Translations under genes and position numbers: made by a program
In this document: positions 8,166 to 54,998 of the stretch, piece by piece
Layout of the letters: each line of letters starts with the position of its first letter
How positions within the stretch are numbered: the stretch's first letter is position 1
Source of the DNA: an uncultured Candidatus Bathyarchaeia archaeon
GTDB taxonomy: Archaea > Thermoproteota > Bathyarchaeia > TCS64
NCBI GenBank assembly: GCA_964628765.1
Contig: CAZVMT010000001.1
Coordinates: forward strand, 1-54,998
DNA: 54,998 bases
Direction of reading: 5' to 3'
Notes under the pieces: generated by a model
Database searches by the model: none
Seen by the model: the letters and a program-made list of their open reading frames with translations, nothing else
Told to the model about the DNA's origin: nothing

Positions 8166-8168
8166 ATG

Positions 8169-8192: not shown

Positions 8193-8204
8193 AGGAGGCT
8201 GAAC

Positions 8205-9354: not shown

Positions 9355-9650
9355 AAACCGTACTCGGTACGGGCGGCGTGCTGCTGCTGGTGTTTATCGT
9401 GATGACGGTGGCGCTCGTTGGCGGCCATACGCTGATGCAAGCAACAGCGGACGCCAACCCAGGCAATGCGGTGCTGGCTCACTATGCGGACCTGACACGC
9501 ACGCTGGCGATAGTCACGCTGCTGTGTGAAGCGTTCGGGTTTCTGATGACGGCGCTGGTGTGGGCGGTGTTCGGGCGCATTGATCGGGCACCGTATCAAC
9601 GGCAGGTTGCGCACTGGGCAGAGGAACGTAACGAAACGAGGGAACAATGA
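9351..9650 (+). CDS. Small membrane protein (2 predicted TM helices)
   Basis: ATGA overlap with the upstream gene. Hydrophobic segments VLLLVFIVMTVALVGG and LAIVTLLCEAFGFLMTALVWAVF. Confidence 0.6.
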   Translation: MKTVLGTGGVLLLVFIVMTVALVGGHTLMQATADANPGNAVLAHYADLTRTLAIVTLLCEAFGFLMTALVWAVFGRIDRAPYQRQVAHWAEERNETREQ

Positions 9651-9886
9651 GGGGCAGAAAGAACACGGGGCGCGACGTGTGGAAAACCGTGCCCGTCCGC
9701 GCCTGCTGCTCGGTTTGTTTCTCTATGAGTGATGCCCGCACCTGCATATGGACGGGTAGCGAGTGGATATGCGCTGACTGCGTTGGGGTTGTCACCAGTG
9801 GCAGGATCACGCCAGCGACCAGCGCGGCAACACGCGGCGTTTATTGGCGGCGGCCCAAACGGGAGGAGGCAGAGTATGAATGGTAG
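9647..9886 (+). CDS. Cys-rich small protein
   Basis: ATGA overlap with the upstream gene. Contains CCSVC...C...CADC. Confidence 0.55.
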   Translation: MRGRKNTGRDVWKTVPVRACCSVCFSMSDARTCIWTGSEWICADCVGVVTSGRITPATSAATRGVYWRRPKREEAEYEW

Positions 9887-9910
9887 CGCGTGGAAAGTGA
9901 GGCTTAGCTG

Positions 9911-10297
9911 ATGAGTCGCGCGGCGAACAAACGGCACAATGCCCGACGCGACGCTAATGAACCGGGCATTGTTGAGGCCCTGCGTAAGTCGGGGGCGCTG
10001 GTAGACCGTATCGACGGCACGGGCACTCCCGACTTACTTGTTGGATACCAGGGCGAATGGTTTTTACTTGAGGTGAAAGTACCCGACAAAAAGCCGCGCT
10101 TGACGGAAGCAGAAGCGGCATGGCACGAGCGGGCTATCGGGTATCCGGTGGCTATCGTACAGACGCCAGAGGAAGCGCTAGCGGCAATTGGCGCAACCGG
10201 GCGGTATTGGGAGGCGTTGGCTGATATGCCAGCGGCGTTAACCGGCAGCGTGTATCGGTTCGTGCCGCCGGATAGCGACAACTGGTTCGGAGTGTAG
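9911..10297 (+). CDS. VRR-NUC / PD-(D/E)xK family nuclease
   Basis: GTPDLLV...FLLEVK motif spacing typical of VRR-NUC. Confidence 0.7.
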   Translation: MSRAANKRHNARRDANEPGIVEALRKSGALVDRIDGTGTPDLLVGYQGEWFLLEVKVPDKKPRLTEAEAAWHERAIGYPVAIVQTPEEALAAIGATGRYWEALADMPAALTGSVYRFVPPDSDNWFGV

Positions 10298-10387
10298 GCG
10301 CGGCAAACAAAAGCCCCCGGTGACGGGGGCACGGGGCGGCGACAGGTGTTCCGCTCCATACCTAAAGTATACCACAAAGGACGGGAT

Positions 10388-11341
10388 ATGGACAACGAAA
10401 CAGATACGTTAAACTGGATTGTTGGCGAAGAGGATACCGAGTTTGACATTGCAGAAATTCGGCTTGAGGCGATCAGCGCCGGGATCGACATCACGAACCA
10501 GCGTTATCTCGATCGCGTGGCAGCTAAGCGCCGCGCCGCCGTGCAAGATGCGCGCCAGAACATTGAGGCGGAGTCGCGTTTTGAACGCTTTACGGCACGC
10601 GCTGACGAAGTGCTTACCGCGCTCGGCCAGCTTGCCGCGTTGACGCTGTACTTGCTGATTGCGCGTATCGGTTTGCCGCTGGCGATCATCCCGCTATGGT
10701 GGGCAGAGATGGAGCGCGTCGGTGCGGGGATTGCCATGTTTGATACACAGCGGGCCGGGTTGCTGGCGGTGACGGCAGTGAGCGCGTACATGGTGCTGCG
10801 TATTGTGCGGGCAAGCAAGGCGACCTCAATGGATTCGACGTGGAAAGAAAATGGCGAAGGTTACGAGTGGTCGCTGCGCATTTGGTGGCAGCACTTTGCT
10901 TACTCGATGGGACTGTCGCGCCAGTGGCATCCGCGCAGCAAAAGCGAACTCAAGCGGCTTGATCAGTCTATCCGGGCGCTTGGCTGGATCATTATCCTGC
11001 TCGGCACGGTTGGCAGTATGCAGGCTGAGCTACAGGTCAACATCGGCGGGCTGAATCAGGCCTACATTGAGTCGCGGTCAGTAGCGTGGCTGTTGTCGAT
11101 GGCAGGCGGGTTTGTGTTGACGGCTGGCTTGCTGTCTGGTACGCACTGGCTGACCGGCTATCTGCACACGGTTTACAGCGATCTCCGGGGGCCTGAAGTT
11201 GAGCGGTCTTTTACCTCTCGATCTTCCGCGCTGGTTATCGAACAGGCGGAAGATCAGGCGGAGGCTCACTATCTGCGTTACCTGATGCGGAAGCGGCAGG
11301 AACTGCTAACCAGTGGCAATCAGAGTACATCGGGCGACTAG
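10388..11341 (+). CDS. Multi-pass membrane protein of unknown function
   Basis: AAAGGA RBS. The N-terminus is soluble and acidic, followed by about 5 hydrophobic helices. Confidence 0.6.
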   Translation: MDNETDTLNWIVGEEDTEFDIAEIRLEAISAGIDITNQRYLDRVAAKRRAAVQDARQNIEAESRFERFTARADEVLTALGQLAALTLYLLIARIGLPLAIIPLWWAEMERVGAGIAMFDTQRAGLLAVTAVSAYMVLRIVRASKATSMDSTWKENGEGYEWSLRIWWQHFAYSMGLSRQWHPRSKSELKRLDQSIRALGWIIILLGTVGSMQAELQVNIGGLNQAYIESRSVAWLLSMAGGFVLTAGLLSGTHWLTGYLHTVYSDLRGPEVERSFTSRSSALVIEQAEDQAEAHYLRYLMRKRQELLTSGNQSTSGD

Positions 11342-11359
11342 ACCGGATCATCGAGCTAC

Positions 11360-11397
11360 TGGAAGCGCAGCGGCAACCGCAGGGCGTGACGGTGAGT
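11360..11397. repeat. 38-bp direct repeat copy 1
   Basis: tggaagcgcagcggcaaccgcagggcgtgacggtgagt is identical to 11537-11574. Confidence 0.9.
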
Positions 11398-11613
11398 GTT
11401 CCCAAAAGCGGCGATTCTTCGGTTGGGAACAGTGTTCCCAGAGTTCCCAAGCTGGTCGCCACACCATCAAAAGCGGAGTTGTGCCGCCAGTGGTTTAAGG
11501 GGCACCCCGACGATCTGAAACTGCCGGGGCGTGACTTGGAAGCGCAGCGGCAACCGCAGGGCGTGACGGTGAGTTACAAATACTGGAACAAGATCAAGAA
11601 GGAATTCGAATAG
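11386..11613 (+). CDS. Hypothetical small protein; start uncertain
   Basis: GTG-start ORF with a weak RBS. It begins inside repeat copy 1 and contains copy 2 in the same frame. Confidence 0.35.
   Translation: MTVSVPKSGDSSVGNSVPRVPKLVATPSKAELCRQWFKGHPDDLKLPGRDLEAQRQPQGVTVSYKYWNKIKKEFE
11537..11574. repeat. 38-bp direct repeat copy 2 (177 bp, or 59 codons, from copy 1)
   Basis: Identical to 11360-11397. Confidence 0.9.
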
Positions 11614-11631
11614 GGGCGGCTTCGGTCGCCC
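11614..11631 (+). terminator. UUCG-capped GC hairpin (gggcggcttcggtcgccc); same sequence as 12056-12073
   Basis: 7-bp stem with a UUCG loop. Only a short T tract follows. Confidence 0.5.
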
Positions 11632-11651
11632 TTATAAGCAAGGGGTAATCA

Positions 11652-12056
11652 ATGGAAAATAACGATGCACGACTGGATCGCATGATTGAGATGTTTATCG
11701 AAATCGAGCGCCAGCGGACAGCATTGCAAGCGCTGATGGTCGAGTATGTCAATGATACCGGGGTCGATTGGGGCGGCACGTACCAATACGATCCGCCCAT
11801 CGATCCGCCTGATGATGCCGCTTTTGCGCGGGGTGATTCTGGATTGTTTCAGGGCGTCAGTGAGGACGACGATCAAGCTGTTGTGTTTGTCACAAAGGGG
11901 CGCAGTAATGGAAAGGTGTTGCGCTGTCCACCTGAGCATGTACGGGCAATTTACGTTGAGTACGATAATCTTGAGCGGCTTGCGGATGAGCACATGACAC
12001 GCAAGACTGAAGGACGTATCAGGAGTGTGGCACAAAGGCCACCTGATATTTATTAG
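11652..12056 (+). CDS. Hypothetical protein
   Basis: AAGGGG RBS and a 134-aa ORF. Confidence 0.65.
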   Translation: MENNDARLDRMIEMFIEIERQRTALQALMVEYVNDTGVDWGGTYQYDPPIDPPDDAAFARGDSGLFQGVSEDDDQAVVFVTKGRSNGKVLRCPPEHVRAIYVEYDNLERLADEHMTRKTEGRIRSVAQRPPDIY

Positions 12057-12073
12057 GGCGGCTTCGGTCGCCC
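12056..12073 (+). terminator. UUCG-capped GC hairpin, second copy
   Basis: Identical 18-nt hairpin followed by TTT. Confidence 0.5.
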
Positions 12074-12074
12074 T

Positions 12075-12091
12075 TTCCACATATTGCGGAA
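12075..12091. promoter_or_regulatory. 17-bp palindromic motif, site 2
   Basis: ttccacatattgcggaa. Confidence 0.6.
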
Positions 12092-12108
12092 ATGATGGAG
12101 GATGACAG

Positions 12109-12318
12109 ATGAGCAGAGATACCGATATGTCGTATACGGTTAGCTCGACCAGCGCGAGAGTTGATGTGACACCGCAAGGCATGGTTTGGCTTTCGTTTTT
12201 CGCTGGCGACCGGCTAACTACCAGAATATCGATGACTCCCGGTGATGCGGAGGGCATGGGTGCTAAGCTTATGGAAGCGGCGGTTATTGCCCGCGACATT
12301 CAAGGGAGTGAGACATGA
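12109..12318 (+). CDS. Hypothetical protein
   Basis: GGAGG RBS. Confidence 0.65.
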   Translation: MSRDTDMSYTVSSTSARVDVTPQGMVWLSFFAGDRLTTRISMTPGDAEGMGAKLMEAAVIARDIQGSET

Positions 12319-12599
12319 ATAAAGTATGGGTGCTAATGAAAGCGGACGATGAAGGCGAACCGGGAAAGACACTTGCGCTTTTTGCATCACTTGAAGATGC
12401 GAAATCATCTATTGAGTGTGAAAAGCCAGGGTTTATTACATCGTATTGGAAGGCTAAAAACGATCGATATGAGGGTGAATACTATGTGGGGTGGATTACG
12501 TCCCGCCCCCTTGCGCGTAAGACGCAATCCATGTATTACATCGTGCCATTGACGGTCGGCTATCACAATATGCAGACTAGTGACGGCGAAAAGGAGTGA
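12315..12599 (+). CDS. Hypothetical protein
   Basis: ATGA overlap and a GGGAG RBS. Confidence 0.65.
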   Translation: MNKVWVLMKADDEGEPGKTLALFASLEDAKSSIECEKPGFITSYWKAKNDRYEGEYYVGWITSRPLARKTQSMYYIVPLTVGYHNMQTSDGEKE

Positions 12600-12602
12600 C
12601 GA

Positions 12603-12833
12603 ATGATTGACAATATACCGGAATGGCAGGTGCTTTACAACGAAGTTGTTGAGGCATTTGGTGATGACTGGTTGGCAACGCCGGAACCCGTGCGGGAATA
12701 TATCAAAGTAATGGAGCAACTGCTCTATGATGCGCAGAGTGTGGTCAAGCTAATTCCAGAATGCCCAGAGCACGGATATTGTTGTCCACATGCCAGCGAA
12801 TGGGTTATTGCAGCGCGGAAGGATAACGAATGA
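12603..12833 (+). CDS. Hypothetical protein
   Basis: AAGGAG RBS. Confidence 0.65.
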   Translation: MIDNIPEWQVLYNEVVEAFGDDWLATPEPVREYIKVMEQLLYDAQSVVKLIPECPEHGYCCPHASEWVIAARKDNE

Positions 12834-13024
12834 TTGACAACATGACGGTGGCGCAGGACGGCACCTATAACCTGTGCGTTGCTGTGACTCTGAGCGGAGT
12901 CGTGGTGCTCACGGTAGTGCTGGAAGATGGCGGCGAAATTCGCGTGTCGATGCTGCCGGAAGAGGCCGAGCGTGTAAGCGGGATGATACGCGACGCGGCG
13001 CTGTTCGTGCGGGGCAGGGAGTAA
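12830..13024 (+). CDS. Hypothetical protein
   Basis: ATGA overlap with the upstream gene. Confidence 0.6.
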   Translation: MIDNMTVAQDGTYNLCVAVTLSGVVVLTVVLEDGGEIRVSMLPEEAERVSGMIRDAALFVRGRE

Positions 13025-13043
13025 GCGGCACAACGTTTGCCTA

Positions 13044-13071
13044 TTGACACGATCGGCAGCCGTGATACCAT
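13044..13071 (+). promoter_or_regulatory. Sigma70-type promoter (TTGACA-16-TACCAT)
   Basis: Perfect -35 hexamer and a 4/6 match at -10. Confidence 0.5.
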
Positions 13072-13077
13072 AGGGTA

Positions 13078-13192
13078 AGCGCGGACGCGAACGCCGGGCC
13101 AGCAGCTACAGGTCCGGCACCCTTCGTCTGGACACAAATTCACCTCTACGTAAACTAGAGCACCTGCGGCCACAGGTGCTCATCTTTTTTTT
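13078..13192 (+). ncRNA. Candidate ~115-nt small RNA (promoter-to-terminator unit with no ORF)
   Basis: Lies between the 13044 promoter and the 13158-13192 terminator. Internal hairpin GCCGG...CCGGC is enclosed by AGGGU...ACCCU. Confidence 0.45.
13158..13192 (+). terminator. Strong intrinsic terminator
   Basis: GAGCACCUG-cggcca-CAGGUGCUC followed by T8. Confidence 0.85.
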
Positions 13193-21065: not shown

Positions 21066-21446
21066 ATGAAACGATATAAAGAATACGACTATTGGCTTGT
21101 TTTTCCCATTGCCAACAATGATATACGCTGGCATTGGAATAAGCATACACACGACTTGTATTTGAATTACAGTACCTCCGATGAATTCTACAAAACCGCC
21201 ACTGTTTGGTATGAAGTATCTCCGCTTGTGCAACGGTTGTATCTTGAAAAGTGGGGCGCTGAATTGTGGCCCCTTATTAAAGATTATGTGTTGATTGTTC
21301 AGGATCACCTTAATCGCAAAACTCACCTCACGCAACCTCTAGGAGTAAAGCACGCTGAGCAGCGTTCAGCAGAGATAATCATCAATGAGATTGTTGATGC
21401 TTTTATGCTGTCGAAAACAGGTATGCACAACGGTTCTGGCCTATGA
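21066..21446 (+). CDS. Hypothetical protein encoded by a low-GC gene
   Basis: Clearly AT-richer than the flanking genes. GAGGTGA RBS. Confidence 0.6.
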   Translation: MKRYKEYDYWLVFPIANNDIRWHWNKHTHDLYLNYSTSDEFYKTATVWYEVSPLVQRLYLEKWGAELWPLIKDYVLIVQDHLNRKTHLTQPLGVKHAEQRSAEIIINEIVDAFMLSKTGMHNGSGL

Positions 21447-22537
21447 TGAATACTACCGTGATCATCCCTGTCGGGCCGAATCACCACGATCTGAGTGTTC
21501 GCGCCATTGCCAGCGTGCAAGATCAGACGACGGCGGCGGCGCTCATTGTCGTGCATGATACCGAGCGGCGCGGCCCCGGATGGGCGCGTAATCAGGGCAT
21601 CGAGCAGGCGGACACGCCGTTCGTGCTGTTCCTGGATGCCGACGACTGGCTCAATCCTGAAGCTGTGCAGCGCCTCGAAGCGGCGGCGGCGGGATGGGAT
21701 GGGTATGTGTATGGCGACTGGATCATCGGGAACGCTGTGCACAAGTCGCCGGAGCCGTGCAAAGCATGGCGGCACGGCACGCGCAACATCGTGACGGCGC
21801 TGGTGCCGACGGTGGCAGCGCGTAAGGTGGGCGGCTTTGATGAGACACTGCCCGGCGGGGAAGATACCGACTTCTACCTCAAACTAATTGCCGCCGGGAT
21901 ATGTGGCAAACACATTGATTACCCCGTCCTCAACTACCGGCCCGAAGGCGAACGCGGGCGGGAGTATGTGGCAAGCGGGGCACGCGACCGGGTACACGCG
22001 CTCATGGATGCGCGTTATGGAGTAAGGGAAATTGTAATGGGATGCTGTGGAAAACCTGATAAGCCGGACACCACGCCGGAGCCGATTGAAAACGGGGTGC
22101 TTGTCACTCCCGTCTGGCGCGGCAATCGAAGAGTTACAGGCGGGGTAACGGGGCGCGACTACGGACGGCAGTCAGCGCCAAAAACATTTTACATCGACAG
22201 GCGCGATCTTGATGCGATGCCGAACATGTATCGCCCTGTGCAGGTCGGAGATGCCGAACCGGAGTCGCTGCTTAACCCAGCCTTCCCGATTGCACGGGGG
22301 CTACCGGCGCTCGGCGACGCTATCTTTGGTGAACGGCGCGAGGCCCCGCAGGGCACGCGCTACACACCGCCAACGGCAGGGCGGCAAGCGCCAGACCTTG
22401 ACGCGGTGATTCGCATGGGGCGCGAAGCGTTGGAAGCGGCGCCAGCGTCGGAACCTGCGCCCAAGCCGAAACGCACGCGCAAACGTAAGGCGACGGCACC
22501 GAAAGCAGAGGTTATTGTCGAGGGTGAGGGTGCATGA
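21443..22537 (+). CDS. Family 2 (GT-A) glycosyltransferase with a C-terminal extension
   Basis: VIIPVGPNHH, LFLDADDWL (DxD) and GGEDTDFY motifs. Confidence 0.75.
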   Translation: MMNTTVIIPVGPNHHDLSVRAIASVQDQTTAAALIVVHDTERRGPGWARNQGIEQADTPFVLFLDADDWLNPEAVQRLEAAAAGWDGYVYGDWIIGNAVHKSPEPCKAWRHGTRNIVTALVPTVAARKVGGFDETLPGGEDTDFYLKLIAAGICGKHIDYPVLNYRPEGERGREYVASGARDRVHALMDARYGVREIVMGCCGKPDKPDTTPEPIENGVLVTPVWRGNRRVTGGVTGRDYGRQSAPKTFYIDRRDLDAMPNMYRPVQVGDAEPESLLNPAFPIARGLPALGDAIFGERREAPQGTRYTPPTAGRQAPDLDAVIRMGREALEAAPASEPAPKPKRTRKRKATAPKAEVIVEGEGA

Positions 22538-22860
22538 AAGTGTACATTGTGCGTGCACGAGTAGTCGATCATCTTTCGCCTATGCCGATAGGCGTGTTTG
22601 ATAATTTCGCGCTGGCGAAAAGCGAGCTTGTCAAATTTCTTGAGGCCATGTTTCCCGGTTACGAATGGCTGAACTGTGGAAACACGTTCCCTGCCCCCTG
22701 GCTTGCAGTGGAACGGGTGGGGCCCGGCACAGAAAGCACTCTAATAAGATATGGAGACATCAAGGGGGCAGTTATGAACGAGTTAATGTCCGATGCTGCC
22801 GATTGGGTGCGTCTCAAGCCAGAACTTGACAGCATGGCAGAAAGAGCGAAACGTGACTGA
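22534..22860 (+). CDS. Hypothetical small protein (lower GC)
   Basis: ATGA overlap with the upstream gene. Confidence 0.55.
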   Translation: MKVYIVRARVVDHLSPMPIGVFDNFALAKSELVKFLEAMFPGYEWLNCGNTFPAPWLAVERVGPGTESTLIRYGDIKGAVMNELMSDAADWVRLKPELDSMAERAKRD

Positions 22861-23665
22861 CGAAATCGTCTTTGTCCGCACGCGCCACGAATACGCCAGC
22901 TATGCCGACCTATGGCGGCTTGTCGAGCTAACCGGCTTCCCGCTGATCTACCCTGACGAGGTGCCCACTCAGGCACCGGATACCACGTTTATCATCACGC
23001 CCGCCAACGGCGAGTGGCGTGACTGGCCCGAAGATCACACGACCGGGCATATCGTGTTTTGGAATCTGGAATGGGGCAAGGGCGATCCAATCCCCTGCGC
23101 CAATGAGGTGTGGACTTCGGATGCATGGCACGCTGAGCGCATCGGGGCGCGGTTCGTGCCGTTTGGCAGCCACCCCGATCTATGCCCAACCGAACGCGCC
23201 GACGCGCCCGACTACGACGCGATCCTGCTGGCCTATCGCAACTGGCCCCGGCAGGTTGCGGAGGGCGCGCTTATTGACGCGGGGCTGACGGTTGCGCCGG
23301 ATGGGTGGGGCGAACACCGCCGGGATATGTTGGGCCGGACGCGCTGTATGGTGAACGTACACCAGCATCAGATCATGCCGGAACACTGGATTGAAGAAGA
23401 ATATCCCTGCGTAGCGGCGCAGCGGTTCGCGGTGGCGGCTTCGGCGCGGATTCCGCTGATCGGCCAGACCATGTACAACCCGCTGCCGTTTATTCCGGGC
23501 CTGCATTTTATCCCGACTGCCATGCCGTTTATTGCTAATGTTGTGGCATCCCTCACGCCACAGCGCGGCGAAGAACTGGCGCGGGCCATGCACCTGCTGC
23601 TGTGTGAGCAGCTTCGATTTGACAAGGTGGTCAAGGCTGCGGTTCGGGGAGGAGTAGAGGTATGA
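22853..23665 (+). CDS. CgeB-like/GT-B C-terminal-domain glycosyltransferase (putative)
   Basis: MVNVHQHQ...AAQRFAVAASARIPLI resembles the CgeB/Glyco_trans_1_2 core. Confidence 0.45.
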   Translation: MTDEIVFVRTRHEYASYADLWRLVELTGFPLIYPDEVPTQAPDTTFIITPANGEWRDWPEDHTTGHIVFWNLEWGKGDPIPCANEVWTSDAWHAERIGARFVPFGSHPDLCPTERADAPDYDAILLAYRNWPRQVAEGALIDAGLTVAPDGWGEHRRDMLGRTRCMVNVHQHQIMPEHWIEEEYPCVAAQRFAVAASARIPLIGQTMYNPLPFIPGLHFIPTAMPFIANVVASLTPQRGEELARAMHLLLCEQLRFDKVVKAAVRGGVEV

Positions 23666-23931
23666 AAGCAACAGTTAATCTGTTTTGGGTCGTGGTCAAG
23701 GCTGAGCCGAAAATTAAAGGCTCATACCAATTTTTTCGCGCTGGCCCGCTGTATTTTGATGAGGTATTCAGAACCCGCGCCGCTGCAATCGAGCGCCTTA
23801 GAAGCAACCGCGACGGCGATCTGCTCTTCAAGGAAGAGGAAATCGTTATTGTCGACAATACTGCCGCATTCCTCATGCTTTATGAAACAGGTGCATTTTT
23901 GATTAAGCCCCTGTTGGAGTTTTCAGAATAA
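23662..23931 (+). CDS. Hypothetical small protein (lower GC)
   Basis: ATGA overlap with the upstream gene. Confidence 0.55.
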   Translation: MKATVNLFWVVVKAEPKIKGSYQFFRAGPLYFDEVFRTRAAAIERLRSNRDGDLLFKEEEIVIVDNTAAFLMLYETGAFLIKPLLEFSE

Positions 23932-24683
23932 TGAAAATCATCGCTTTCACCGCTCTTCACTACGGTATGGACTACCTCGACGCGGCGATCCGGTCGGTCG
24001 CGCCATTCGTGCACGAGTGGTACTTTGCCTACTCTCCGGTTGGCAGTCACGGCACGCGCACCCACACGGTATGCCCGGAGTCAGAGTCGATGTTACGCGC
24101 CGAAGCTGAGCGGGCGTTTTCCCGCTCCCCGCTGCAACGTGGCTTCGATTACGCATGGTATACACAGGACTGGAACCACGAGGGCGAACAGCGGGACAGC
24201 GTGTATACCATGTGCCCCGACGCCGATCTGATCATCGTTGTGGACGCTGACGAGGTATGGGCACCGGAAGCGGTCGCGGATGCAGTCAGGGCAGGCGCGG
24301 CGCAAACGACGCATGACGGTCTGCTCCCGTTCTGGCACTTCTGGCGCTCGTTCGGGTGGTACTGCACAGATGGGCATCGCCCGGTACGGCTGATTCGCCC
24401 TGACATGCCTGCTGGCAACACGTACCACGACCTGCCGCCCGTATACCACTTCGGTTATGCGCAGCGCTTAGAGATTGTGCGCTACAAGATCGGGATACAC
24501 GGGCACCGGACAGAGTGGCGCAATGACTGGCTGGCGCGGTTCGAGGCGTGGACCCCGGCGGGGCCGCACAATGATCTGCATCCGGTGGTGTATGATTTCT
24601 GGACGGCGCGGCCATTTGCCAAAGAGCAGATGCCCGCCGTGCTTGCGGAACATCCGAACTATGGAAAGGGAATTGTTAGATGA
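23931..24683 (+). CDS. GT-A-like glycosyltransferase (putative)
   Basis: N-terminal beta-strand MKIIAFTALHYG and a DxD motif, IIVVDADEVW. Confidence 0.5.
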   Translation: MKIIAFTALHYGMDYLDAAIRSVAPFVHEWYFAYSPVGSHGTRTHTVCPESESMLRAEAERAFSRSPLQRGFDYAWYTQDWNHEGEQRDSVYTMCPDADLIIVVDADEVWAPEAVADAVRAGAAQTTHDGLLPFWHFWRSFGWYCTDGHRPVRLIRPDMPAGNTYHDLPPVYHFGYAQRLEIVRYKIGIHGHRTEWRNDWLARFEAWTPAGPHNDLHPVVYDFWTARPFAKEQMPAVLAEHPNYGKGIVR

Positions 24684-25210
24684 CTAGATTTGCCATATTC
24701 TTATATCTATCGGGGCAAACAAGGATTGTCGGTTATCCAGAAGGCTTTGAAGAAGTCTACACGACTGTGCCGACCGCAGAATTATCCAGGGGCGTCATTC
24801 TCGATCTAGATAGGTTTGACCAAAGCGCTGATGATTTATTCAATGAATTCAAGCAAGGGGCGCGGACCTTTGGCGGACCTTTGGCTGAATTGCCGTTTAT
24901 TCTGGATAATGACGGGCTGGATTTCGAGAAGCGTATTATGTGGTTTGACGGCTTGGCTTTCACCCTCATTCCTATGTGGGCTGATGAAGTTCCGGGCCTT
25001 AGTATCGACCATGAAAAATATCGTAGTGGGGATATTGAATCTCATCCTAAGGCCAAGATACACTTTGAGCGCCCGCTAACGCTCGAACGAGATGACGGCG
25101 AAACCATACTAAGAATGCACTCCGAGACACGATATATCGAAGCGGGTCCCAAAACAGACGCCTTTATCGCCGAGCAAAGGCAGCACAATAAAGAGAAGGA
25201 TAACGAATGA
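24680..25210 (+). CDS. Hypothetical protein (lower GC)
   Basis: ATGA overlap with the upstream gene. Confidence 0.55.
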   Translation: MTRFAIFLYLSGQTRIVGYPEGFEEVYTTVPTAELSRGVILDLDRFDQSADDLFNEFKQGARTFGGPLAELPFILDNDGLDFEKRIMWFDGLAFTLIPMWADEVPGLSIDHEKYRSGDIESHPKAKIHFERPLTLERDDGETILRMHSETRYIEAGPKTDAFIAEQRQHNKEKDNE

Positions 25211-26103
25211 CCGACATGAACATTCTAATCGCTGGATTACATCACCGCGTAGGCACTGCCCGCTACATGACCGACGCTTTTGAGCGCCTGGGTCATGACA
25301 CCCGACACATCGGCTACCTGCCCGGCAACGACAACCCCGCCGACTCTAACCGCTGGCTGCCACAGGGCGACTGGCACAAGGCGTGGGAGGGCTGGACGCC
25401 GGACCTCGTGCTCTACATCGACACGATCTACCACACGTACCAGCACAACGTATACGGCAGCGTGCCCCACGTGACCGTGTGCACGTGTAACAACGTCTGC
25501 AACATGAGCACGACCAAGCATGCGCATTATTTTGTCGCCCACAAGCACAGCGAAGAGTGGCCGCTCGAAGGGCCTGATATGTCATGGATGCCCTGCGGCT
25601 ACGATCCGGCGCTGCACACGCCGAGTCCGATTGCATGGAGCAAGCGCGAATATGACATCGCTGTCGTGGGAGCAGGCACGGACCCGCGCCGGGAATACGT
25701 GGCAGCGCTGCGCGAAGCCGGGTTGTCTGTGCTGTTCGAAAGTGGCGTGTACTTCGAGGCTTACGTAGACGCCTACCACAACAGCCGCATGAGCCTCTGC
25801 GTCAACGTGTACAAGTCGCCCATGATGCGCTATTTTGAGAGTGCGGCGATGGGCTGCCTGATCATCGGAGACAACAGCCCGGACCTTGTCGATCTCAAAG
25901 CGCGGGGCATGGTGGGCGTAGACAGCGCAGTGGAAGCGGTAGAGCAGGCGCAGTATTATCTGGCCCACGCAAAGGAAGCCAACGCCATGATCAAGCAGGC
26001 GCAGCGGTGGGCCGCACGCAAGGTAAACGGCGTCCCGGCGCATTCGTGGGATGCACGGGCGCAGCAGATTGTCGATTGGTACAAGGAGGCATACGGTGGC
26101 TGA
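25207..26103 (+). CDS. CgeB-like glycosyltransferase
   Basis: SLCVNVYKSPMMRYFESAAMGCLIIGD plus a C-terminal helix pattern as in the CgeB family. Confidence 0.55.
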   Translation: MTDMNILIAGLHHRVGTARYMTDAFERLGHDTRHIGYLPGNDNPADSNRWLPQGDWHKAWEGWTPDLVLYIDTIYHTYQHNVYGSVPHVTVCTCNNVCNMSTTKHAHYFVAHKHSEEWPLEGPDMSWMPCGYDPALHTPSPIAWSKREYDIAVVGAGTDPRREYVAALREAGLSVLFESGVYFEAYVDAYHNSRMSLCVNVYKSPMMRYFESAAMGCLIIGDNSPDLVDLKARGMVGVDSAVEAVEQAQYYLAHAKEANAMIKQAQRWAARKVNGVPAHSWDARAQQIVDWYKEAYGG

Positions 26104-26788
26104 TATTATCCGCTGCACATCAGTGCACGACGCGCTGGCGCAGATTAACGTGACGTTCGGGATCGACGGCACACCATACCCCGACGAGGATCATTACACT
26201 GGGTGGGATTACGGCAAGGGGCAATTCCACAGCGGGGCAATTTTCGGCGTCGAGGGGCAGGTATTGTATTCGCTGGTTCGGGCGCTAGAAGCTGATACGA
26301 TTTTTGAAATTGGCCCTGCTACAGGATGCAGTAGTACGCATATTTTGGCCGCGCTGAAAACAATCGATAGCAAGCGCTTGTATTCAGGGCTTACTAGCGC
26401 TGATTTGCGAGAAGATGCAGGCAGCGAAATTCCCTATGAACTGCGCGGGCATTTTCGATTAACAGTAGAAAGCGGTGTAACAATGTTGGACGAATGGGAA
26501 CAAGAATGTATTGGGCATAGACAACCATATCCCATTATCGACATGGTATTCGACGACAGTTCTCACCTTCGCCCCGACGTTGCCGCCCATGCCGAGTACA
26601 TCAAGCGCCTACTGCGCCCCGGCGGCGTCTACGTTGTGCATGACGTGGCCCACCCGATGCACCGGGACAACGTGCAAGGCGGGCTGGCTGACGCGGGCCT
26701 GCTGGATGCCATGCTGCTGCTGTTGATCGAACCTGCCGACACCGGGATCGGTGTGTGGCGTAAGCCGCTTGGAGAGTATGATGCCTAA
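26096..26788 (+). CDS. Class I SAM-dependent methyltransferase
   Basis: AAGGAGG RBS before GTG 26096. Motif I IFEIGPATGCSS, plus VFDDSSH and GGVYVVHD. Confidence 0.7.
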   Translation: MADIIRCTSVHDALAQINVTFGIDGTPYPDEDHYTGWDYGKGQFHSGAIFGVEGQVLYSLVRALEADTIFEIGPATGCSSTHILAALKTIDSKRLYSGLTSADLREDAGSEIPYELRGHFRLTVESGVTMLDEWEQECIGHRQPYPIIDMVFDDSSHLRPDVAAHAEYIKRLLRPGGVYVVHDVAHPMHRDNVQGGLADAGLLDAMLLLLIEPADTGIGVWRKPLGEYDA

Positions 26789-27080
26789 AATAACAGATAC
26801 ATCATATAAAATCTATTGTGATGAAATTCCCGGACATGAAATAATGACAAAACAAGAGATAAGAAGAGCTTGTTATAAACAAGCGCATCAAGAGATAGAG
26901 GGCTATCTTCGCGGCAGTTGGTGGCCCTTGCATTCTGGAAATAATTCACAAATAGATATAGGTTATTGCTTTCCGCTAGGTATGCCTATCCCCGCAGATG
27001 AATTGATAAGAATGGGGTACACGCAAGAAGCGAAGCAAAAAACAGAAGTAGAAATATTCTGGGGAAAAAGAAACTCATGA
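26778..27080 (+). CDS. Hypothetical small protein encoded by a low-GC gene
   Basis: Markedly AT-rich. Overlaps the end of the upstream gene. Confidence 0.55.
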   Translation: MMPKITDTSYKIYCDEIPGHEIMTKQEIRRACYKQAHQEIEGYLRGSWWPLHSGNNSQIDIGYCFPLGMPIPADELIRMGYTQEAKQKTEVEIFWGKRNS

Positions 27081-28786
27081 TCACTGTATCTATTGTGTCA
27101 GGCACCTACAATCGCATCAATCACCTGACCGCCATGCTCGACAGCGCCCGCCGCTCTCTGCCTGCCGGGGTGCCCTATGAATTCGTGATTGTGGATGGGG
27201 GCAGCACGGACGGCACGCTCGACTACCTGCGGCGCCAGTCGGACGTGGCGCTAATCGAGCACGGTGAACTGCGCGGCGCAATCCGCGCATTCTGCGACGG
27301 GGCACAGGCGGCAAGGGGTAAGTACGTGCTGCTGGCGAATGACGATGTGACATTCCGCCCCTACGGGATCGCGGCGGCAATCGCACACCTCGACGATAAT
27401 CCCCACTGCGGCGCGGTGGCATTTCGTGACAACCGGCCCGCGCCCGGCTACCCGCACGGCGTGTACAAGACACAGACGACGGCAGTCCGGCTGGCGAACG
27501 GCAAGCGGTCGCACGTGACGTTTGCTCAGGTCGGCCTGTTTCGCCGCTGGCTAGGCGATGCTGTGGGTTGGTGGGGGGCAGATGATCCAGTTATGGGCGT
27601 GTCGCGCACGTATGGCGGGGACAACTTCCTGAGCGCCCGTATTTGGGAGGAAGGCTACACAGTCGAGGAAGTGACATTCGCTGATGTGACCGATCATGTT
27701 GCCAACGACGACCTGCGGCACAACAACACGGCGCATACCGGCGGCATTCACCCTGACAGCAAGGCATTTCGGGACCGCTTCCCTGACGGCGCGATCCTGC
27801 CCGCTGTGTCAAAGGTCGCCAGTGACCCGCGCCCACTGCGCATTCTGTACCTGTCAATCTACGAGCCGCATACGCTGCAACACACAACCAAGCGCGGTTT
27901 GCGGCAGGCGCTCAAACTGATCGGCCTCGTGTGGGAGGTGGACTACCTCAACAGCAGTATGGACCTTGCTCACGTGGTCAAGGCATGGCAGCCGGACTTG
28001 GTGCTGAGCCAGTTCCACGATGGCAGAAATGTCACCGCCGATAAGCTGGCGTATATCCGTAAGTTGTCCCCACATTCGACCTGGGTCAACTGGTCGGGGG
28101 ACGCGCGGGGACTGTTGGAGCCGGAATATATTGACCTACTGACCCATGTCGATCTGCAACTGGTCGTTAATGCCAGCGTGTTGGGTAATTATGCGGAAAT
28201 GGCAATTCCTGCGTCATTCTGGCAAGTCGGCTATGAACTACCGCAGTGTGAATTGCCCGATGTGCCGCCCTATGATGTGGTGTTCCTCGGCAACAACACG
28301 AACGCCCACCGCGCCGAAATGGTGGCCCGACTGCGGGCGATCTCTGGCATCGCGTTCGGGCTATACGGGGCGGGGTGGCAGGATGCAGATGGGCAGTGTC
28401 TATATGACTTCGCCACCGCTTGCGCCCTGCATCGCTCGGCGCGGATTGTGATCGGTGATACATTCCCCGACACATGGGGTTTTGTCTCTAATCGTATGGT
28501 TCAAGTGTTGGGCGATGGGGCGTTTTTGCTGCATGAACGGATCGCGGGTCTAACGGAACGTATGGGGGTTGTACCGGGCGAACATTACGCCGACTGGGCT
28601 GACCTCGACGATCTTGAAGCGCAGATCGCCTACTGGCTACAACCCGAACAAGACGCGAAGCGCAAGCGTATCATGCTTGCGGGACAGGCGTTTGTACAGG
28701 AACGGTACGTATTCGACGCGCTGGTGCGGCAGTTGTTCGATGACCTGCTGCCGATGATCCGGCAAGGACAGAGGGAAACAGCATGA
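27077..28786 (+). CDS. Two-domain glycosyltransferase (N-terminal GT2, C-terminal CgeB-like)
   Basis: SIVSGTYNR...FVIVDGGSTDGT...LANDDV in the N-terminal half. VSNRMVQVLGDGAFLLHE...LEAQIAYWL in the C-terminal half. Confidence 0.75.
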   Translation: MITVSIVSGTYNRINHLTAMLDSARRSLPAGVPYEFVIVDGGSTDGTLDYLRRQSDVALIEHGELRGAIRAFCDGAQAARGKYVLLANDDVTFRPYGIAAAIAHLDDNPHCGAVAFRDNRPAPGYPHGVYKTQTTAVRLANGKRSHVTFAQVGLFRRWLGDAVGWWGADDPVMGVSRTYGGDNFLSARIWEEGYTVEEVTFADVTDHVANDDLRHNNTAHTGGIHPDSKAFRDRFPDGAILPAVSKVASDPRPLRILYLSIYEPHTLQHTTKRGLRQALKLIGLVWEVDYLNSSMDLAHVVKAWQPDLVLSQFHDGRNVTADKLAYIRKLSPHSTWVNWSGDARGLLEPEYIDLLTHVDLQLVVNASVLGNYAEMAIPASFWQVGYELPQCELPDVPPYDVVFLGNNTNAHRAEMVARLRAISGIAFGLYGAGWQDADGQCLYDFATACALHRSARIVIGDTFPDTWGFVSNRMVQVLGDGAFLLHERIAGLTERMGVVPGEHYADWADLDDLEAQIAYWLQPEQDAKRKRIMLAGQAFVQERYVFDALVRQLFDDLLPMIRQGQRETA

Positions 28787-47044: not shown

Positions 47045-47599
47045 CTAATCTATCAGCCCGGCAGATTTTTGATAATCGGTATAAGATACACCTCGCAAAA
47101 CCAGACTGATGGAGTTTCTGCTCACACTGTAACGTGCGCTTATTTCACAAAGAGACATGCCATTTTCTGAAAGCCTGTGTATGTTTTTAATATCTTCTGG
47201 TCTAAGTTTGCTTTGTGGCTTATCAAATTCAGTTGGTAACGCGGCTATTGCGTTAGTCCGTATTGGCTGTAGCCTAAGATTACACGGGCGCATATCGTCA
47301 CTACTGCCAATAAAAACGACCTCCATGTCGTCCGGGATTTTCCCGACGAACACTGTGTAAACAAGACGGTTGATTCCAATCTGCTTTTGTCCCCCGTCTT
47401 TGCATAATGTATGCGCCCACTTATTTGTTGGATTAGACGGTTTTAGTAAACGGCCTTTAAGTCTGTGACCATTAGCCGAAAGACGATCAAGTGATTTGAC
47501 ACGCCCAATATTGGATATAATGTATATACCCTCATAGTCGGGAATTGGTCGCCATACCTCGCCCGATATATACCCCTTGCGGCTTTTGAAGTTGCCCAC
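47045..47599 (-). CDS. HNH homing endonuclease (NUMOD4 N-terminus, C-terminal HTH)
   Basis: WRPIPDYEGIYIISNIGRVKS is a NUMOD4 signature. Low-GC gene. Confidence 0.75.
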   Translation of the reverse strand: MGNFKSRKGYISGEVWRPIPDYEGIYIISNIGRVKSLDRLSANGHRLKGRLLKPSNPTNKWAHTLCKDGGQKQIGINRLVYTVFVGKIPDDMEVVFIGSSDDMRPCNLRLQPIRTNAIAALPTEFDKPQSKLRPEDIKNIHRLSENGMSLCEISARYSVSRNSISLVLRGVSYTDYQKSAGLID

Positions 47600-50482: not shown

Positions 50483-51007
50483 TTATCTTACATAGGTTTT
50501 GCCGGATACGATGTTGTTTATGCAGGTAGGTGTAACTTCATACTCGCGTGCCAATTCCGCTTGGGTCACTTGAGGGTTTTGGATTCGGTTGCGAATATCA
50601 TCAGCCTGTTCCCAAGACAATTTTGCCGCGTAGTTGTCAGCCCCCCGCTGTCTCCGAAACTGCATATTCTGTTTACGAGTAAACAATCGCAAGTTCTCTG
50701 GTCGGTTATCATCACGCACTTTGTTGATGTGATCGATTTCCATTGGCGGTGCAATTTCGCCAATGAACGTCATGTATACCAGTTGATGAGCATAAAAATG
50801 CTGCCTCTCACCACCCCGGCAAAGGTTGTAACCGTGATATCCGTTGATGTTTGACGGCTTGAGAATACGTTCTTTCAGGTGGCGACCTACTGAGCTAACC
50901 CGCGTCAATGCTTTAACGCGCCCGGTGTTGGACACCTGATAGATACCCTCATAACCAGGCACGTCGCGCCATTCTTCCTGTAGCTCCTGGTATCGTTTTT
51001 CGTTCAT
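50483..51007 (-). CDS. HNH homing endonuclease (NUMOD4 N-terminus)
   Basis: WRDVPGYEGIYQVSNTGRVKA, an HNH-like H...N...H region, and a C-terminal HTH. Confidence 0.75.
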   Translation of the reverse strand: MNEKRYQELQEEWRDVPGYEGIYQVSNTGRVKALTRVSSVGRHLKERILKPSNINGYHGYNLCRGGERQHFYAHQLVYMTFIGEIAPPMEIDHINKVRDDNRPENLRLFTRKQNMQFRRQRGADNYAAKLSWEQADDIRNRIQNPQVTQAELAREYEVTPTCINNIVSGKTYVR

Positions 51008-51010
51008 TGG

Positions 51011-51478
51011 TTAGTCCTCCGCCAACTCGAACCCCAACACCCACACCTCGACGCCGGAGGCAAAGCTACCCGCGCCGTGAATTTCGTCCCACGTCATAGC
51101 GAATTCTTCAACTGGTGTAACCGGGTTACACCATGTTTCCCCGCTTGGACCATGCGAAATTACATCATACCCGGTAAACCCCTCCGACACCGCACCCGCT
51201 TCGGTGATAGCATTCACTGGTTCACGCTTGATGCTGGTGAGTTTGAAGCGCGCGACCGCCTTTTGCCCGCGCCCTGGTTGCACCGCGTAGGTGTTGCCAA
51301 CGCGCCACTTGACCCCATTGTTTGAGTAAAAGTGGACGGCGCGTATCACTGGGCTATCTACGAATACGCCAAAGTTATTATACGATGACATCTCGGCCCA
51401 CTCGGTTTGTTTAACCGGGCGGCGCGTTTCCGACTTGGTACCATTGAGTACCCACTGATATGTTTTTGCGAATTGCAT
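51011..51478 (-). CDS. ASCH (PUA-like) domain protein
   Basis: LNGTKSETRR, RVGNTYAV and ITEAGAVSEGF pattern. Confidence 0.6.
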   Translation of the reverse strand: MQFAKTYQWVLNGTKSETRRPVKQTEWAEMSSYNNFGVFVDSPVIRAVHFYSNNGVKWRVGNTYAVQPGRGQKAVARFKLTSIKREPVNAITEAGAVSEGFTGYDVISHGPSGETWCNPVTPVEEFAMTWDEIHGAGSFASGVEVWVLGFELAED

Positions 51479-51987
51479 TAGCTTCCTCCCTGCTCTGACA
51501 GGTCAAGATTTTTATTATGCAGCACAACCGACCACACCGCGCCGCCGATTGTCTTGGCAGCAAACTGCCCGACCATGATCGGTACCAACAATGGCAACCC
51601 AAACGCCAGCGCCGGAAACACGACGCTGTCTACTGCTGCGCTGGCGATGTTCGATCCGTTGATCTTCACTAATCGCGCACGGCTGCCCATCGCGGCGTAC
51701 ACAACAGTATCGACCACCCCCGCCGCCGCAAACGCTGCGAACGAAGCGACAGCAATCGACGCTGCATTCCAATTAAGCGCCGCCGACAGGATCGACCCGG
51801 CACCGATCAACAGCGCCATATTGCGCCACAGGTCTCGCCCGCTCCACTGCTCATGCAGTCGGTCACGGGCAGTCAGGTCGAGGCCGATGAACAGCAGCGC
51901 GTTGATCACGCTCATGCCCGGACCGAATGCAGCGGTGGTCAAATTCGCGGCAACGATGGCCGCCAGATACATCACAATCAAGTACAT
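51478..51987 (-). CDS. yhhQ: YhhQ/DUF165-family queuosine-precursor (preQ0/preQ1) transporter
   Basis: GGGAGGA RBS before ATG 51987. Six hydrophobic helices. Segments FIGLDLTARD, AGVVDTVVY and SAAVDSVVFPALAF are co-linear with E. coli YhhQ as I recall it. Confidence 0.65.
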   Translation of the reverse strand: MYLIVMYLAAIVAANLTTAAFGPGMSVINALLFIGLDLTARDRLHEQWSGRDLWRNMALLIGAGSILSAALNWNAASIAVASFAAFAAAGVVDTVVYAAMGSRARLVKINGSNIASAAVDSVVFPALAFGLPLLVPIMVGQFAAKTIGGAVWSVVLHNKNLDLSEQGGS

Positions 51988-52619
51988 AGGAATCCTCCCA
52001 TAGCGGGGTGAAATTGAGATAACCACCCCGTCCACGTGTGCACAACGCCAGGCTCATAAATTTCATTGGTACCATCGATGCTATCAGCGCCAATCAGGTG
52101 AAAATGGTTAGCCCGCTTTCGACTGTTGACGCGCCCGATGTGCACCCATTTCTCGCGCCGCTTAGCATCAACAATCAACCGGTCAGCGTCGGGTGACATT
52201 TTCCACTCGGTAGACCCGCCGATAAAAAGCGCTGCAATCTGCGGCCAGGGTACATCATCCGGTGTCATACCATCCTGAGCAGCCAATCCGACAGGGTACC
52301 CGTACCCGGTAATTGCCGGATACCAAAACGGGAATTCCGTCAACGTAGCTGCTGCATCGCCAACAACATCAGGCGCCAGGACAAACACGCACTTACTCCG
52401 CCAAGGCTGAAAATCACACAACATGCGAATGAAATCCGCGTCGCTGTAATGCGCATTAAAGCGATTGTTGTCGGCTGCCCACACATTGGTAATCTGCACA
52501 TCGCGCAATTGACCGGCCCGACTTTTTAATGACGGCGTAACTAATCGCCCCCAGACATCAGGTCTGTTTATTAGCGCGTCTGTAATGTGCTGATTAGCGA
52601 TGTTGGCAAGGCGAAACAT
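51978..52619 (-). CDS. dpdA: DpdA-like (TGT-superfamily) DNA transglycosylase (putative)
   Basis: Ordered motifs WAADNNRFN, LAPDVVGDAAATL, IGGSTEWK, HIGRVNS and GADSIDGT resemble the DSGAF/PDxxGD/GG/HxxG/DSxxW pattern of DpdA. The gene overlaps the transporter gene. Confidence 0.45.
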   Translation of the reverse strand: MFRLANIANQHITDALINRPDVWGRLVTPSLKSRAGQLRDVQITNVWAADNNRFNAHYSDADFIRMLCDFQPWRSKCVFVLAPDVVGDAAATLTEFPFWYPAITGYGYPVGLAAQDGMTPDDVPWPQIAALFIGGSTEWKMSPDADRLIVDAKRREKWVHIGRVNSRKRANHFHLIGADSIDGTNEIYEPGVVHTWTGWLSQFHPAMGGFLCT

Positions 52620-52831
52620 TACACTGTCCCTTTGTTGGACTCGTCCTCGACACCCGTGACGCGGATGTCGTCGGCAGCGGTGGAATACGGCCACCATGCC
52701 GCGATGTCGGCGCACACTACGGCGATAGCATCCTGCTCACTGGTAGCCCACACCCGCCATATGGTGCCCGGTGTCTGCGCGGCGGTGTCGAGGCCGTAAA
52801 ACTCGGTGACGGTGTAGAGCTTCTTAGTCAT
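52619..52831 (-). CDS. Hypothetical small protein
   Basis: TAATG coupling to the downstream gene. Confidence 0.55.
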   Translation of the reverse strand: MTKKLYTVTEFYGLDTAAQTPGTIWRVWATSEQDAIAVVCADIAAWWPYSTAADDIRVTGVEDESNKGTV

Positions 52832-53513: not shown

Positions 53514-53539
53514 TATCAATATACACCACATGGCGCATA

Positions 53540-53568
53540 TTGTCAAACAAGCCGTGATAGTGTACACT
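53540..53568 (+). promoter_or_regulatory. Plus-strand promoter (TTGTCA-17-TACACT)
   Basis: Hexamers and spacing read directly. Confidence 0.5.
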
Positions 53569-53899: not shown

Positions 53900-53928
53900 T
53901 TGACATTGTGGGCTAAAAAGCCTATGAT
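53900..53928 (+). promoter_or_regulatory. Near-consensus sigma70 promoter (TTGACA-17-TATGAT)
   Basis: Hexamers and spacing read directly. Confidence 0.7.
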
Positions 53929-54824: not shown

Positions 54825-54998
54825 TGTACCTGAAACAACGTGAGGATCAGCGGCTCACCGAAGGCGCGGCGCTCGATCTGCTGCGTACCGTGCGGCGCTA
54901 TTGTTGGCACGCCGACATTTATTTAGCGGAGCGCACCGACGGCAAGCCTGCCAGTGAGTGGAGATTTTACGTAGCGCACAACAGCGCGTCACCGAAGT
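54824..54998 (+). CDS. 5' part of the 94-aa hypothetical protein that continues at 56..165 after removal of the overlap
   Basis: TAATG coupling to the upstream ORF. The frame is open to the window end and matches the frame of 1..165. Confidence 0.6.
   Translation, partial: MYLKQREDQRLTEGAALDLLRTVRRYCWHADIYLAERTDGKPASEWRFYVAHNSASPK
54944..54998. repeat. Second copy of the terminal overlap (same as 1-55)
   Basis: Identical to bases 1-55. Confidence 0.97.

Follow-up and report, generated by a model that had tools for sequence, protein, structure and literature searches.

The nearest known counterparts of the system treated here are the DpdA proteins, members of the tRNA-guanine transglycosylase (TGT) superfamily. 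Bacterial DpdA (bDpdA) belongs to the Dpd restriction-modification system of S. Montevideo; structure and mutagenesis have assigned its D95 (acid/base), F99, D130, H181-G182, G206-G207 and D256 (nucleophile), and mutagenesis showed D95 and D256 to be essential (PMC10164549). Among phages, those of Group 3 encode DpdA only and no preQ0 genes, for which the use of host preQ0 or the uptake of exogenous 7-deazapurines has been proposed, and some phages encode the transporter YhhQ, 'with no correlation' to any phage group (Hutinet et al. 2019, PMC6884629). DpdA3 and DpdA4 were added by Cui et al. 2023. Here we describe a locus in contig CAZVMT010000001.1 (assembly GCA_964628765.1, assigned to an uncultured Candidatus Bathyarchaeia archaeon), the whole of which, 54,998 nt, is called the window below. 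In this locus, the gene for a short putative transglycosylase, F205, is paired with a gene for a YhhQ-type membrane transporter.

As judged from profile and motif comparisons, F205 is a remote member of the TGT/DpdA superfamily that forms a minimal, separate clade and is not DpdA1, bDpdA or DpdA4. The conserved unit is the pair of F205 and the transporter, not the trio that these genes form in the window with a gene for an ASCH protein. We give about even chances to the proposal that the pair carries out a salvage-based insertion of 7-deazaguanine, in which the transporter imports the base and F205 swaps it for guanine in phage DNA, so that the DNA is protected from restriction.

The preliminary description of this DNA, made from the letters alone, called a minimal module of transporter plus transglycosylase with an ASCH partner less explored. 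This holds only in part, since DpdA-only phages, the supply concept and phage YhhQ are already known (PMC6884629, PMC7544227). What appears to be new and undescribed is the minimal enzyme family of ~205 aa and its obligate two-gene pairing. Neither this family nor its coupling to a transporter is described in any paper that we found, and the family survives as an annotation label only; the names of the phages that carry it do not occur in the part of the supplementary files of Hutinet et al. 2019 covered here. The supply logic is the same as in Group 3 phages, the difference being the tight link between one particular short family and a transporter.

Gene organization

The operon consists of the following features, given in the direction of reading on the minus strand.

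53518..53546, minus strand: sigma-70-like promoter candidate TTGACA-17-TATATT, 11/12 matches, from a consensus scan only
52619..52831, minus strand: open reading frame (ORF) of 70 aa, whose stop is coupled to the F205 ATG by a TAATG overlap
51978..52619 (start 52619), minus strand: F205, 213 aa, predicted minimal TGT/DpdA-like enzyme with a triosephosphate isomerase (TIM) barrel
51478..51987, minus strand: Vut_1/COG1738 (YhhQ/QPTR-type) membrane transporter, 169 aa (Pfam PF02592)
51011..51478, minus strand: ASCH (PUA-like) domain protein, 155 aa

The last three are the ORFs of the preliminary description, and their strand and positions are as it gave them. Its two gene overlaps can also be read directly from the sequence: the start of the transporter gene overlaps the F205 gene by 10 nt, and the transporter stop and the ASCH start share a TAATG with an overlap of 1 nt. 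A ribosome-binding site, GGGAGGA, precedes both the transporter and the ASCH genes. The short start codons are used here, as those backed by alignments of homologues. The 70-aa ORF has no family match in profile searches and was not seen beside F205 at other loci; this ORF and the ASCH gene are probably co-transcribed passengers. The candidate promoter could drive the leftward operon, and a divergent promoter-like site lies on the plus strand at 53900-53928. Note that the consensus scan returned 6 sites where 4.5 are expected, which makes it weak evidence.

Homology of F205 to TGT and DpdA proteins

The relationship of F205 to DpdA emerges from profile-profile comparison. The DpdA1 profile was built from 118 diverse sequences collected by a representative search, which was needed because a plain homologue search gave close relatives only. 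In hhalign, F205 matches this profile with a probability of 78% (E 1.8e-5) when represented by 49 sequences of its family, and with 91% (E 9e-7) when represented by 189. As controls, the reversed profile gave 0.1%, and no match was obtained with ten shuffles of the columns or with the ASCH family, which is unrelated. Against the single E. coli Tgt, F205 reaches 0.1%, a negative that is uninformative because the DpdA1 profile itself reaches only 2.7% there. Similarly, searches of PDB sequences with the F205 single sequence and with the family profile returned noise only, and DpdA1 likewise finds no PDB sequence. No match to F205 was obtained in Pfam, NCBIfam or PADLOC.

The conserved motifs of the two families stand in register in the hhalign alignment, and the five motifs that the preliminary description had listed for the 213-aa ORF are found in the order it reported. 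The corresponding pairs are given below.

F205 WAADNG, DpdA1 FLDSGAF
F205 APDVVGD, DpdA1 LDVIGD
F205 AQDG, DpdA1 FHxG
F205 FIGGS, DpdA1 ALGGM
F205 VHxGRV, DpdA1 VHGFG
F205 DSVDGT, DpdA1 SVDSTSW

Phage DpdA1 (the 9g/CAjan type, such as phiG7_16) is a remote homologue of F205, in that DSG-like, (L/P)DV(I/V)GD, GG, VHxxG and DS/DG motifs follow in the same order, and it is also phage-borne in early or replication-region contexts. The differences are as follows: F205 measures ~205 aa and has no C-terminal extension, whereas DpdA1 measures ~306 aa; F205 is undetected by the DpdA1 hidden Markov model (HMM) or by BLAST, and has Gln in place of the His in the DpdA1 FHxG; and the usual companion of F205 is a transporter and not the full preQ0 pathway (folE/queD/queE/queC). 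DpdA3 (Cellulophaga phiST, Campylobacter phages) and DpdA4 (DUF6610, archaeal viruses) are likewise divergent TGT-like proteins detected by HHpred only. There is no BLAST link between F205 and the DpdA3/DpdA4 phages, tblastn of F205 against phages returned neither nt-1 (DpdA2) nor phiST (DpdA3), and Pfam DUF6610 (PF20314, DpdA4) matches 0 of 49 family members.

The AlphaFold2 (AF2) model of F205, with a predicted local distance difference test (pLDDT) score of 93, forms a complete barrel of eight strand-helix units. When the model is compared with the PDB using Foldseek, the TGT of Z. mobilis ranks first (E 1.2e-5), and transaldolases and ribulose-phosphate epimerase score about equally. In a viral structural library, the named matches at ranks 2-30 are mostly phage DpdA-type 'queuine tRNA-ribosyltransferases', with a phiST protein as a weak match at rank 30. 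By far the top structural match is BFVD A0A0F7L9Z1 of an uncultured marine virus (499 aa; E 2e-11, template modeling (TM) score 0.74, 26% identity). This protein is more than double the length of F205, and its extra domain might reveal the substrate.

F205 falls in phrog_15826 (E 3e-47), which is without assigned function. The family comprises more than 600 proteins with a median of 207 aa, none of them with a Pfam domain, and 393 relatives on viral contigs are found in IMG/VR. GenBank labels for the family are inconsistent, including 'DpdA-like tRNA-guanine transglycosylase' (SEA-PHAGES), 'hypothetical', 'ssDNA-binding protein' and 'DarB-like antirestriction protein'. The last two are attached to the members of Roseobacter phage CRP-701 (locus L096, 3908-5033) and Erythrobacter phage ZS04 (L095, 6881-7522), respectively, and are without support in the present analyses. 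The ZS04 protein is not a fusion: it is a family member of 213 aa that stands alone, and its label is doubtful. Longer members have no informative additional domain. One of them, a 370-aa protein encoded at 8001-9113 of a 297-kb contig (L010), has a C-terminal extension that matches Zn_ribbon_ISL3 and adjoins a TrwC relaxase, ParA and a DNA methylase; from these neighbors, the family also occurs on a plasmid-like element or one resembling an integrative and conjugative element.

Predicted active site

From the alignments, we predict the following catalytic residues in F205: D50 as acid/base, F54 for stacking, D84 and Q115-D116-G117 for base recognition, G134-G135 as the Gly loop, H160, and D182 as nucleophile. 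D50, D84, Q115, G134, G135, H160 and D182 are invariant in 188/188 non-redundant members, and the position of F54 is F or Y in 186 of the 188. The preliminary description had suggested a look at the catalytic Asp positions in a structural model. In the full eight-strand barrel of the AF2 model, each conserved catalytic-type residue is placed at the C-terminal end of one of the predicted strands.

The order D50, F54 (+4), D84, Q115-x-G117, G134-G135, D182 is the same as in bDpdA. F205 and bDpdA thus share the predicted layout of acid/base Asp, Phe at +4, recognition Asp, Gly-Gly loop and nucleophile Asp, but F205 has no Zn site, no DpdA-specific insertions and no PADLOC match. The Zn subdomain is absent from F205, C77 being the only conserved Cys in the family alignment (177/188), and the chain stops ~25-30 residues past the predicted nucleophile. 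In addition, K140, R163, N165 and R169 are invariant in F205 and are absent from DpdA1. The active-site loops are the same across transporter-only, QueF and QueE/QueC loci, and so carry no signal of substrate specificity.

Transporter

The 169-aa protein matches Pfam Vut_1 (PF02592) with 39.4 bits against a gathering threshold of 27.2, and a profile of its family, built from 62 phage relatives, aligns with residues 15-169 of E. coli YhhQ (HMM E 2.5e-15, hhalign 96%). The identification as a YhhQ-type transporter in the preliminary description is therefore sound. The window protein belongs to the same Pfam family as E. coli YhhQ/QPTR (COG1738, Vut_1) and has a co-linear core, although it is shorter, with 169 aa compared with 221 aa. 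Its phage homologues include the CAjan-type YhhQ phiG7_11, which is of similar size, Phegasus gp53 and ReqiPine5 gp04. Six helices were counted by eye and with a crude hydropathy scan only. We predict that the protein is an importer of a 7-deazaguanine base.

Genomic context of F205

The context of F205 was surveyed at 91 loci, namely the window, 4 isolates, 6 metagenome places and 80 IMG/VR loci, which are partly redundant (60 F205 clusters at 90% identity). A Vut_1-like gene is adjacent to F205 and co-oriented with it at 50 loci, upstream in 32 and downstream, as in the window, in 18. At 11 other loci, the Vut_1-like gene lies within 1.5 kb upstream but is non-adjacent, and in 8 of these a QueF gene is located between; the intervening QueF genes were verified with Pfam (28-34 bits; gathering threshold 27.3). 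Taken together, a co-oriented Vut_1-like gene is found within 1.5 kb at 61/91 loci, in both gene orders. The pairing persists when F205 is clustered at 60% identity, where 18 of the 30 clusters have a transporter and 4 have QueE/QueC. The F205-then-VUT order of the window is also found in Roseobacter phage CRP-701, a genome of 29 kb. Because the pair is kept in both orders across wide divergence, we regard this as strong evidence for functional coupling.

QueE and/or QueC occur at 9 loci, 8 of which are without Vut, and at least one deazaguanine-related gene occurs at 71. The QueF, QueE and QueC neighbors identify the metabolite class. Together with C5 DNA methylases, which are same-strand neighbors of F205 at 12 loci, this context ties the F205 family, at the level of gene neighborhood, to 7-deazaguanine metabolism.

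The same survey bears on an alternative in which no deazaguanine or no nucleic acid is involved: F205 would be a generic TIM barrel accompanied by an importer of some other vitamin or purine, or the deazapurine would be conjugated to, or sequestered on, a protein in a Cap10-like manner, for example as an anti-defense. Foldseek ranks TGT and other barrels alike, Pfam calls Vut_1 only a 'putative vitamin uptake transporter', and 20 of the 91 loci have no informative neighbor, all of which would suit this alternative. Modification of a protein N-terminus by an enzyme of the TGT family is also now known (bioRxiv 10.1101/2025.04.06.647259; compare Cap10 in the type IV cyclic-oligonucleotide-based anti-phage signaling system). 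On the other side are the profile-profile homology with motifs in register and invariant catalytic Asp, the recurrence of QueF, QueE and QueC as immediate neighbors, and the match of the transporter family to YhhQ itself; for the Cap10-like version, there is neither a Cap9/QatC-like partner nor a PADLOC match. We consider the alternative quite improbable.

Canonical DpdA lies within 6 kb of F205 at 2 of the 91 loci. In Arthrobacter phage Sonali and Seuratvirus phiG7, the canonical DpdA sits with QueC or with a full folE-queDEC cluster, and the presence of F205 and canonical DpdA in one phage argues against simple redundancy. This coexistence is relevant to a second alternative, in which F205 swaps the base on a free (deoxy)nucleotide (dGMP/dGTP) that is then incorporated at replication. 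An enzyme at a different step of the pathway would fit beside the DNA-acting DpdA of Sonali and phiG7, the minimal barrel has no Zn subdomain or nucleic-acid-binding insertions, and the invariant K140, R163, N165 and R169 could hold the phosphates of a mononucleotide. These basic residues could equally touch the DNA backbone, however, and no dedicated kinase or dNTPase is found nearby. Moreover, we know of no TGT-superfamily enzyme that acts on free nucleotides. In the field, the known 7-deazaguanine modifications of DNA are all regarded as post-replicative (PMC10516641). This route thus appears unlikely, and the stronger claim, that F205 is the smallest self-sufficient 7-deazaguanine transglycosylase and acts on the free deoxynucleotide pool, is distinctly doubtful. 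If it were true, a phage would need only an importer and a 205-aa barrel to make modified DNA from deazapurines scavenged from the environment, even in hosts without a queuosine pathway (mycobacteria, for example), and there would be a pre-replicative path to 7-deazaguanine DNA, against the current post-replicative view.

Some further features of these loci are recorded here. Sonali gp86-88 (L001, 6398-8534) encode a ParB-like nuclease-domain protein, the canonical DpdA and a QueC-like protein in a row, which resembles the bacterial DpdB-DpdA pairing; F205 is gp81 in this phage. Among the operon ORFs scanned in the window, no ParB-like/DpdB partner turned up. In the Escherichia phage phiG7 (L003, 6935-7527), F205 is split into the overlapping phiG7_20 and phiG7_21, which are in different frames and lie between DNA polymerase genes. 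It is also split in phage SHIN8, and among many Queuovirinae coliphages only these two carry F205; the split may reflect a pseudogene, a frameshift or an enzyme made of two pieces. PAPS-reductase-like (PP-loop) genes are located near F205 at 9 loci, for example ReqiPine5 gp02 (L002, 4601-5518) and clusters C4 and C12. In the closest relatives L005 (3221-3838, 4190-4672) and the P0004 contig, a dCTP-deaminase-like (DCD) gene lies a few kb upstream of the pair, as does a Macro-domain gene in L005.

Absence of preQ0 synthesis genes

The window begins and ends with an exact direct repeat of 55 nt (1-55 = 54944-54998). Since such a terminal repeat is the usual sign of circular closure, the window represents a complete viral genome of ~54.9 kb, and the absence of preQ0 pathway genes covers the entire genome and not merely a fragment. 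A tblastn search of the window with phage QueC, QueD, QueE, FolE and DpdA proteins gave nothing (all E > 0.2), and six-frame HMM and phmmer scans found F205, the transporter and the ASCH protein only, with no FolE, QueD, QueE, QueC, QueF or canonical DpdA. The absence of the first four, noted by eye in the preliminary description, is thereby borne out. Pfam searches of most window ORFs added nothing relevant. A Pfam scan of the concatenated ORFs gave NUMOD4, HTH_23 and little else, a weak negative that is backed by the tblastn and HMM scans. As the genome has no FolE, QueD, QueE or QueC, the base has to be supplied by the host pool or from outside.

Two cultured phages show the same situation. 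In six-frame HMM scans, the Mycobacterium phage Phegasus (cluster P; complete) and the Rhodococcus phage ReqiPine5 (57 of 59 kb) have only the pair and no preQ0 synthesis genes; weak 'QueF' matches in ReqiPine5 (E 6e-4, 5e-3) are probably artefacts of an over-extended QueF seed ORF. Mycobacteria, including the Phegasus host M. smegmatis, reportedly possess no Q-pathway genes (Hutinet et al., PMC6884629). A phage of such a host cannot take host preQ0, so that the importer becomes the logical source.

The hosts are also important in considering an RNA target, that is, the possibility that the pair salvages a queuosine precursor for host or phage tRNA, or other RNA, and tunes translation during infection. 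TGTs are chiefly tRNA enzymes, YhhQ supplies bacterial tRNA queuosine synthesis, and Q115 aligns with the DpdA1 His at a position occupied by Gln in bacterial tRNA TGTs. In addition, Hutinet et al. proposed that some phages raise Q production. Nevertheless, F205 is without the Zn subdomain and the C-terminal parts for tRNA binding and dimerization, the sole tRNA of the genome, tRNA-Thr(TGT), is no Q substrate, and mycobacteriophages, which infect hosts without a Q pathway, carry the pair. The neighbors are DNA methylases and replication genes, and QueA, QueG and QueH are absent among the recurrent neighbors, although no search was aimed at them. An RNA target is improbable on this balance.

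ASCH protein

The preliminary description proposed a Pfam search of the three ORFs. This yielded Vut_1 for the transporter, no TGT for F205 and no direct match for the 155-aa protein. Its assignment to ASCH comes instead from its homologues, 14 of 23 full-length ones matching Pfam ASCH (PF04266; best E 5e-7), and from the AF2 model (pLDDT 87.5), whose top PDB matches are YqfB (TM on target 0.80), EF3133, 3s9x, PH0355 and ZmASCH. According to the model, the fold is a genuine ASCH fold. As in other ASCH proteins, such as the N4-acetylcytidine (ac4C) amidohydrolase YqfB of E. coli, the N-terminal G-T-K-x-x-T-R-R and E-G motifs are kept; unlike YqfB-type proteins, the window protein has an insertion of ~50 residues and is undetected by Pfam directly.

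The fold of this protein was thus anticipated correctly, but its role as a module partner was not. An ASCH gene lies near F205 at just 2 of the 91 loci, the window and its closest relative, L011, and none of the cultured phages with the F205-transporter pair has one; when co-occurrence of the trio in other phage genomes is examined, it is the pair that recurs and not ASCH. ASCH is probably incidental and is not a conserved partner of F205.

For the same reason, we find it very unlikely that the window encodes a three-part system in which ASCH is a functional subunit, giving a PUA-like nucleic-acid surface or processing the modified base. Such a role would agree with the translational coupling of the ASCH start to the transporter stop, with its own ribosome-binding site, and with the nearest structure being that of a nucleoside amidohydrolase, YqfB. 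Archaeal TGT carries a PUA domain, which also counts in its favor, as does the ASCH gene of L011, 1.6 kb downstream of F205. In L011, however, two genes intervene, and its ASCH protein shares only 29% identity with that of the window.

Proposed mechanism

In the salvage proposal, the module would be expressed from an early leftward operon, and the YhhQ/QPTR-type transporter would import 7-deazaguanine as a free base (preQ0, preQ1 or possibly queuine) into the infected cell. F205 would then exchange guanine for the imported base by the double displacement of TGT/DpdA, in which D182 would attack C1' as nucleophile and D50 would act as general acid/base, while F54 would stack on the base, and D84 and Q115 would read its Watson-Crick edge. 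The acceptor would most likely be phage DNA, resulting in a dPreQ-type modification that may blunt restriction.

Several results weigh against this proposal. F205 is missed by the models of the known enzymes: Pfam TGT (PF01702) matches 0/49 family members even at E <= 10, the DpdA1 HMM picks up Sonali gp87 and phiG7_16 alone and has no match in the window at E <= 0.01, and PADLOC, including its Dpd models, has no F205 match. The protein is also without the Zn subdomain and the nucleic-acid-binding insertions of TGT/DpdA. Consequently, the term DpdA-like transglycosylase used in the preliminary description is appropriate for a remote superfamily member with intact catalytic residues but does not extend to membership in the DpdA family. 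Foldseek cannot separate TGT from other barrels at such near-equal scores. The transporter is below the equivalog level, with 21.5 bits against the cut-off of 50.95 for NCBIfam TIGR00697 and, in the same way, 16 bits against 252 for PRK11212, and the substrate specificity of Vut_1 proteins is not readable from sequence. With regard to context, 20/91 loci have no deazaguanine-related neighbor within 6 kb, the F205 homologue of Sonali and phiG7 is a second gene beside canonical DpdA, and no preQ1 riboswitch was found. Finally, modification was unchanged when yhhQ was deleted from CAjan, a phage that makes its own preQ0 (Kot et al. 2020).

If the salvage proposal is true, two small genes suffice for guanine hypermodification without a biosynthetic pathway. 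The outcome would be set by environmental or host deazapurines, which would link phage anti-restriction to metabolite exchange in the community. The family would mark 393 or more viral contigs, together with actinophages, roseophages and cyanophages in culture, as candidates for modified DNA, which is relevant to sequencing, cloning and studies of defense systems. The 205-aa core without a Zn domain would also define the minimal TGT chemistry and might serve as a compact tool for labeling nucleic acids.

Other features of the genome

No near-identical phage was found by megablast of the locus against GenBank phages, and the large terminase subunit (TerL) has at most 31% identity to that of any phage isolate. 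The remaining annotated features are as follows.

772-843, plus strand: tRNA-Thr(TGT), the only tRNA in the genome
21443-22537, plus strand: family 2 glycosyltransferase (GT2) gene
25207-26103, plus strand: family 1-like glycosyltransferase (GT1-like) gene
26051-26788, plus strand: methyltransferase gene
27077-28786, plus strand: GT2+GT1 fusion gene
47045-47599, minus strand: NUMOD4-type homing endonuclease gene
50483..51007, minus strand: NUMOD4 + HNH_3 homing endonuclease (Pfam 3.7e-16 and 5.3e-15), which starts 3 nt past the ASCH gene

The second homing endonuclease is a mere neighbor and is outside the module. Around the tRNA gene (1-1700), the ORFs are all implausible, and the long minus-strand ORFs at 7800-13100 appear spurious judging from their translations. 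The glycosyltransferase block (21443-28786, plus strand) is located within the structural module, with capsid genes on one side and tail genes on the other, and may be involved in glycosylation of the virion.

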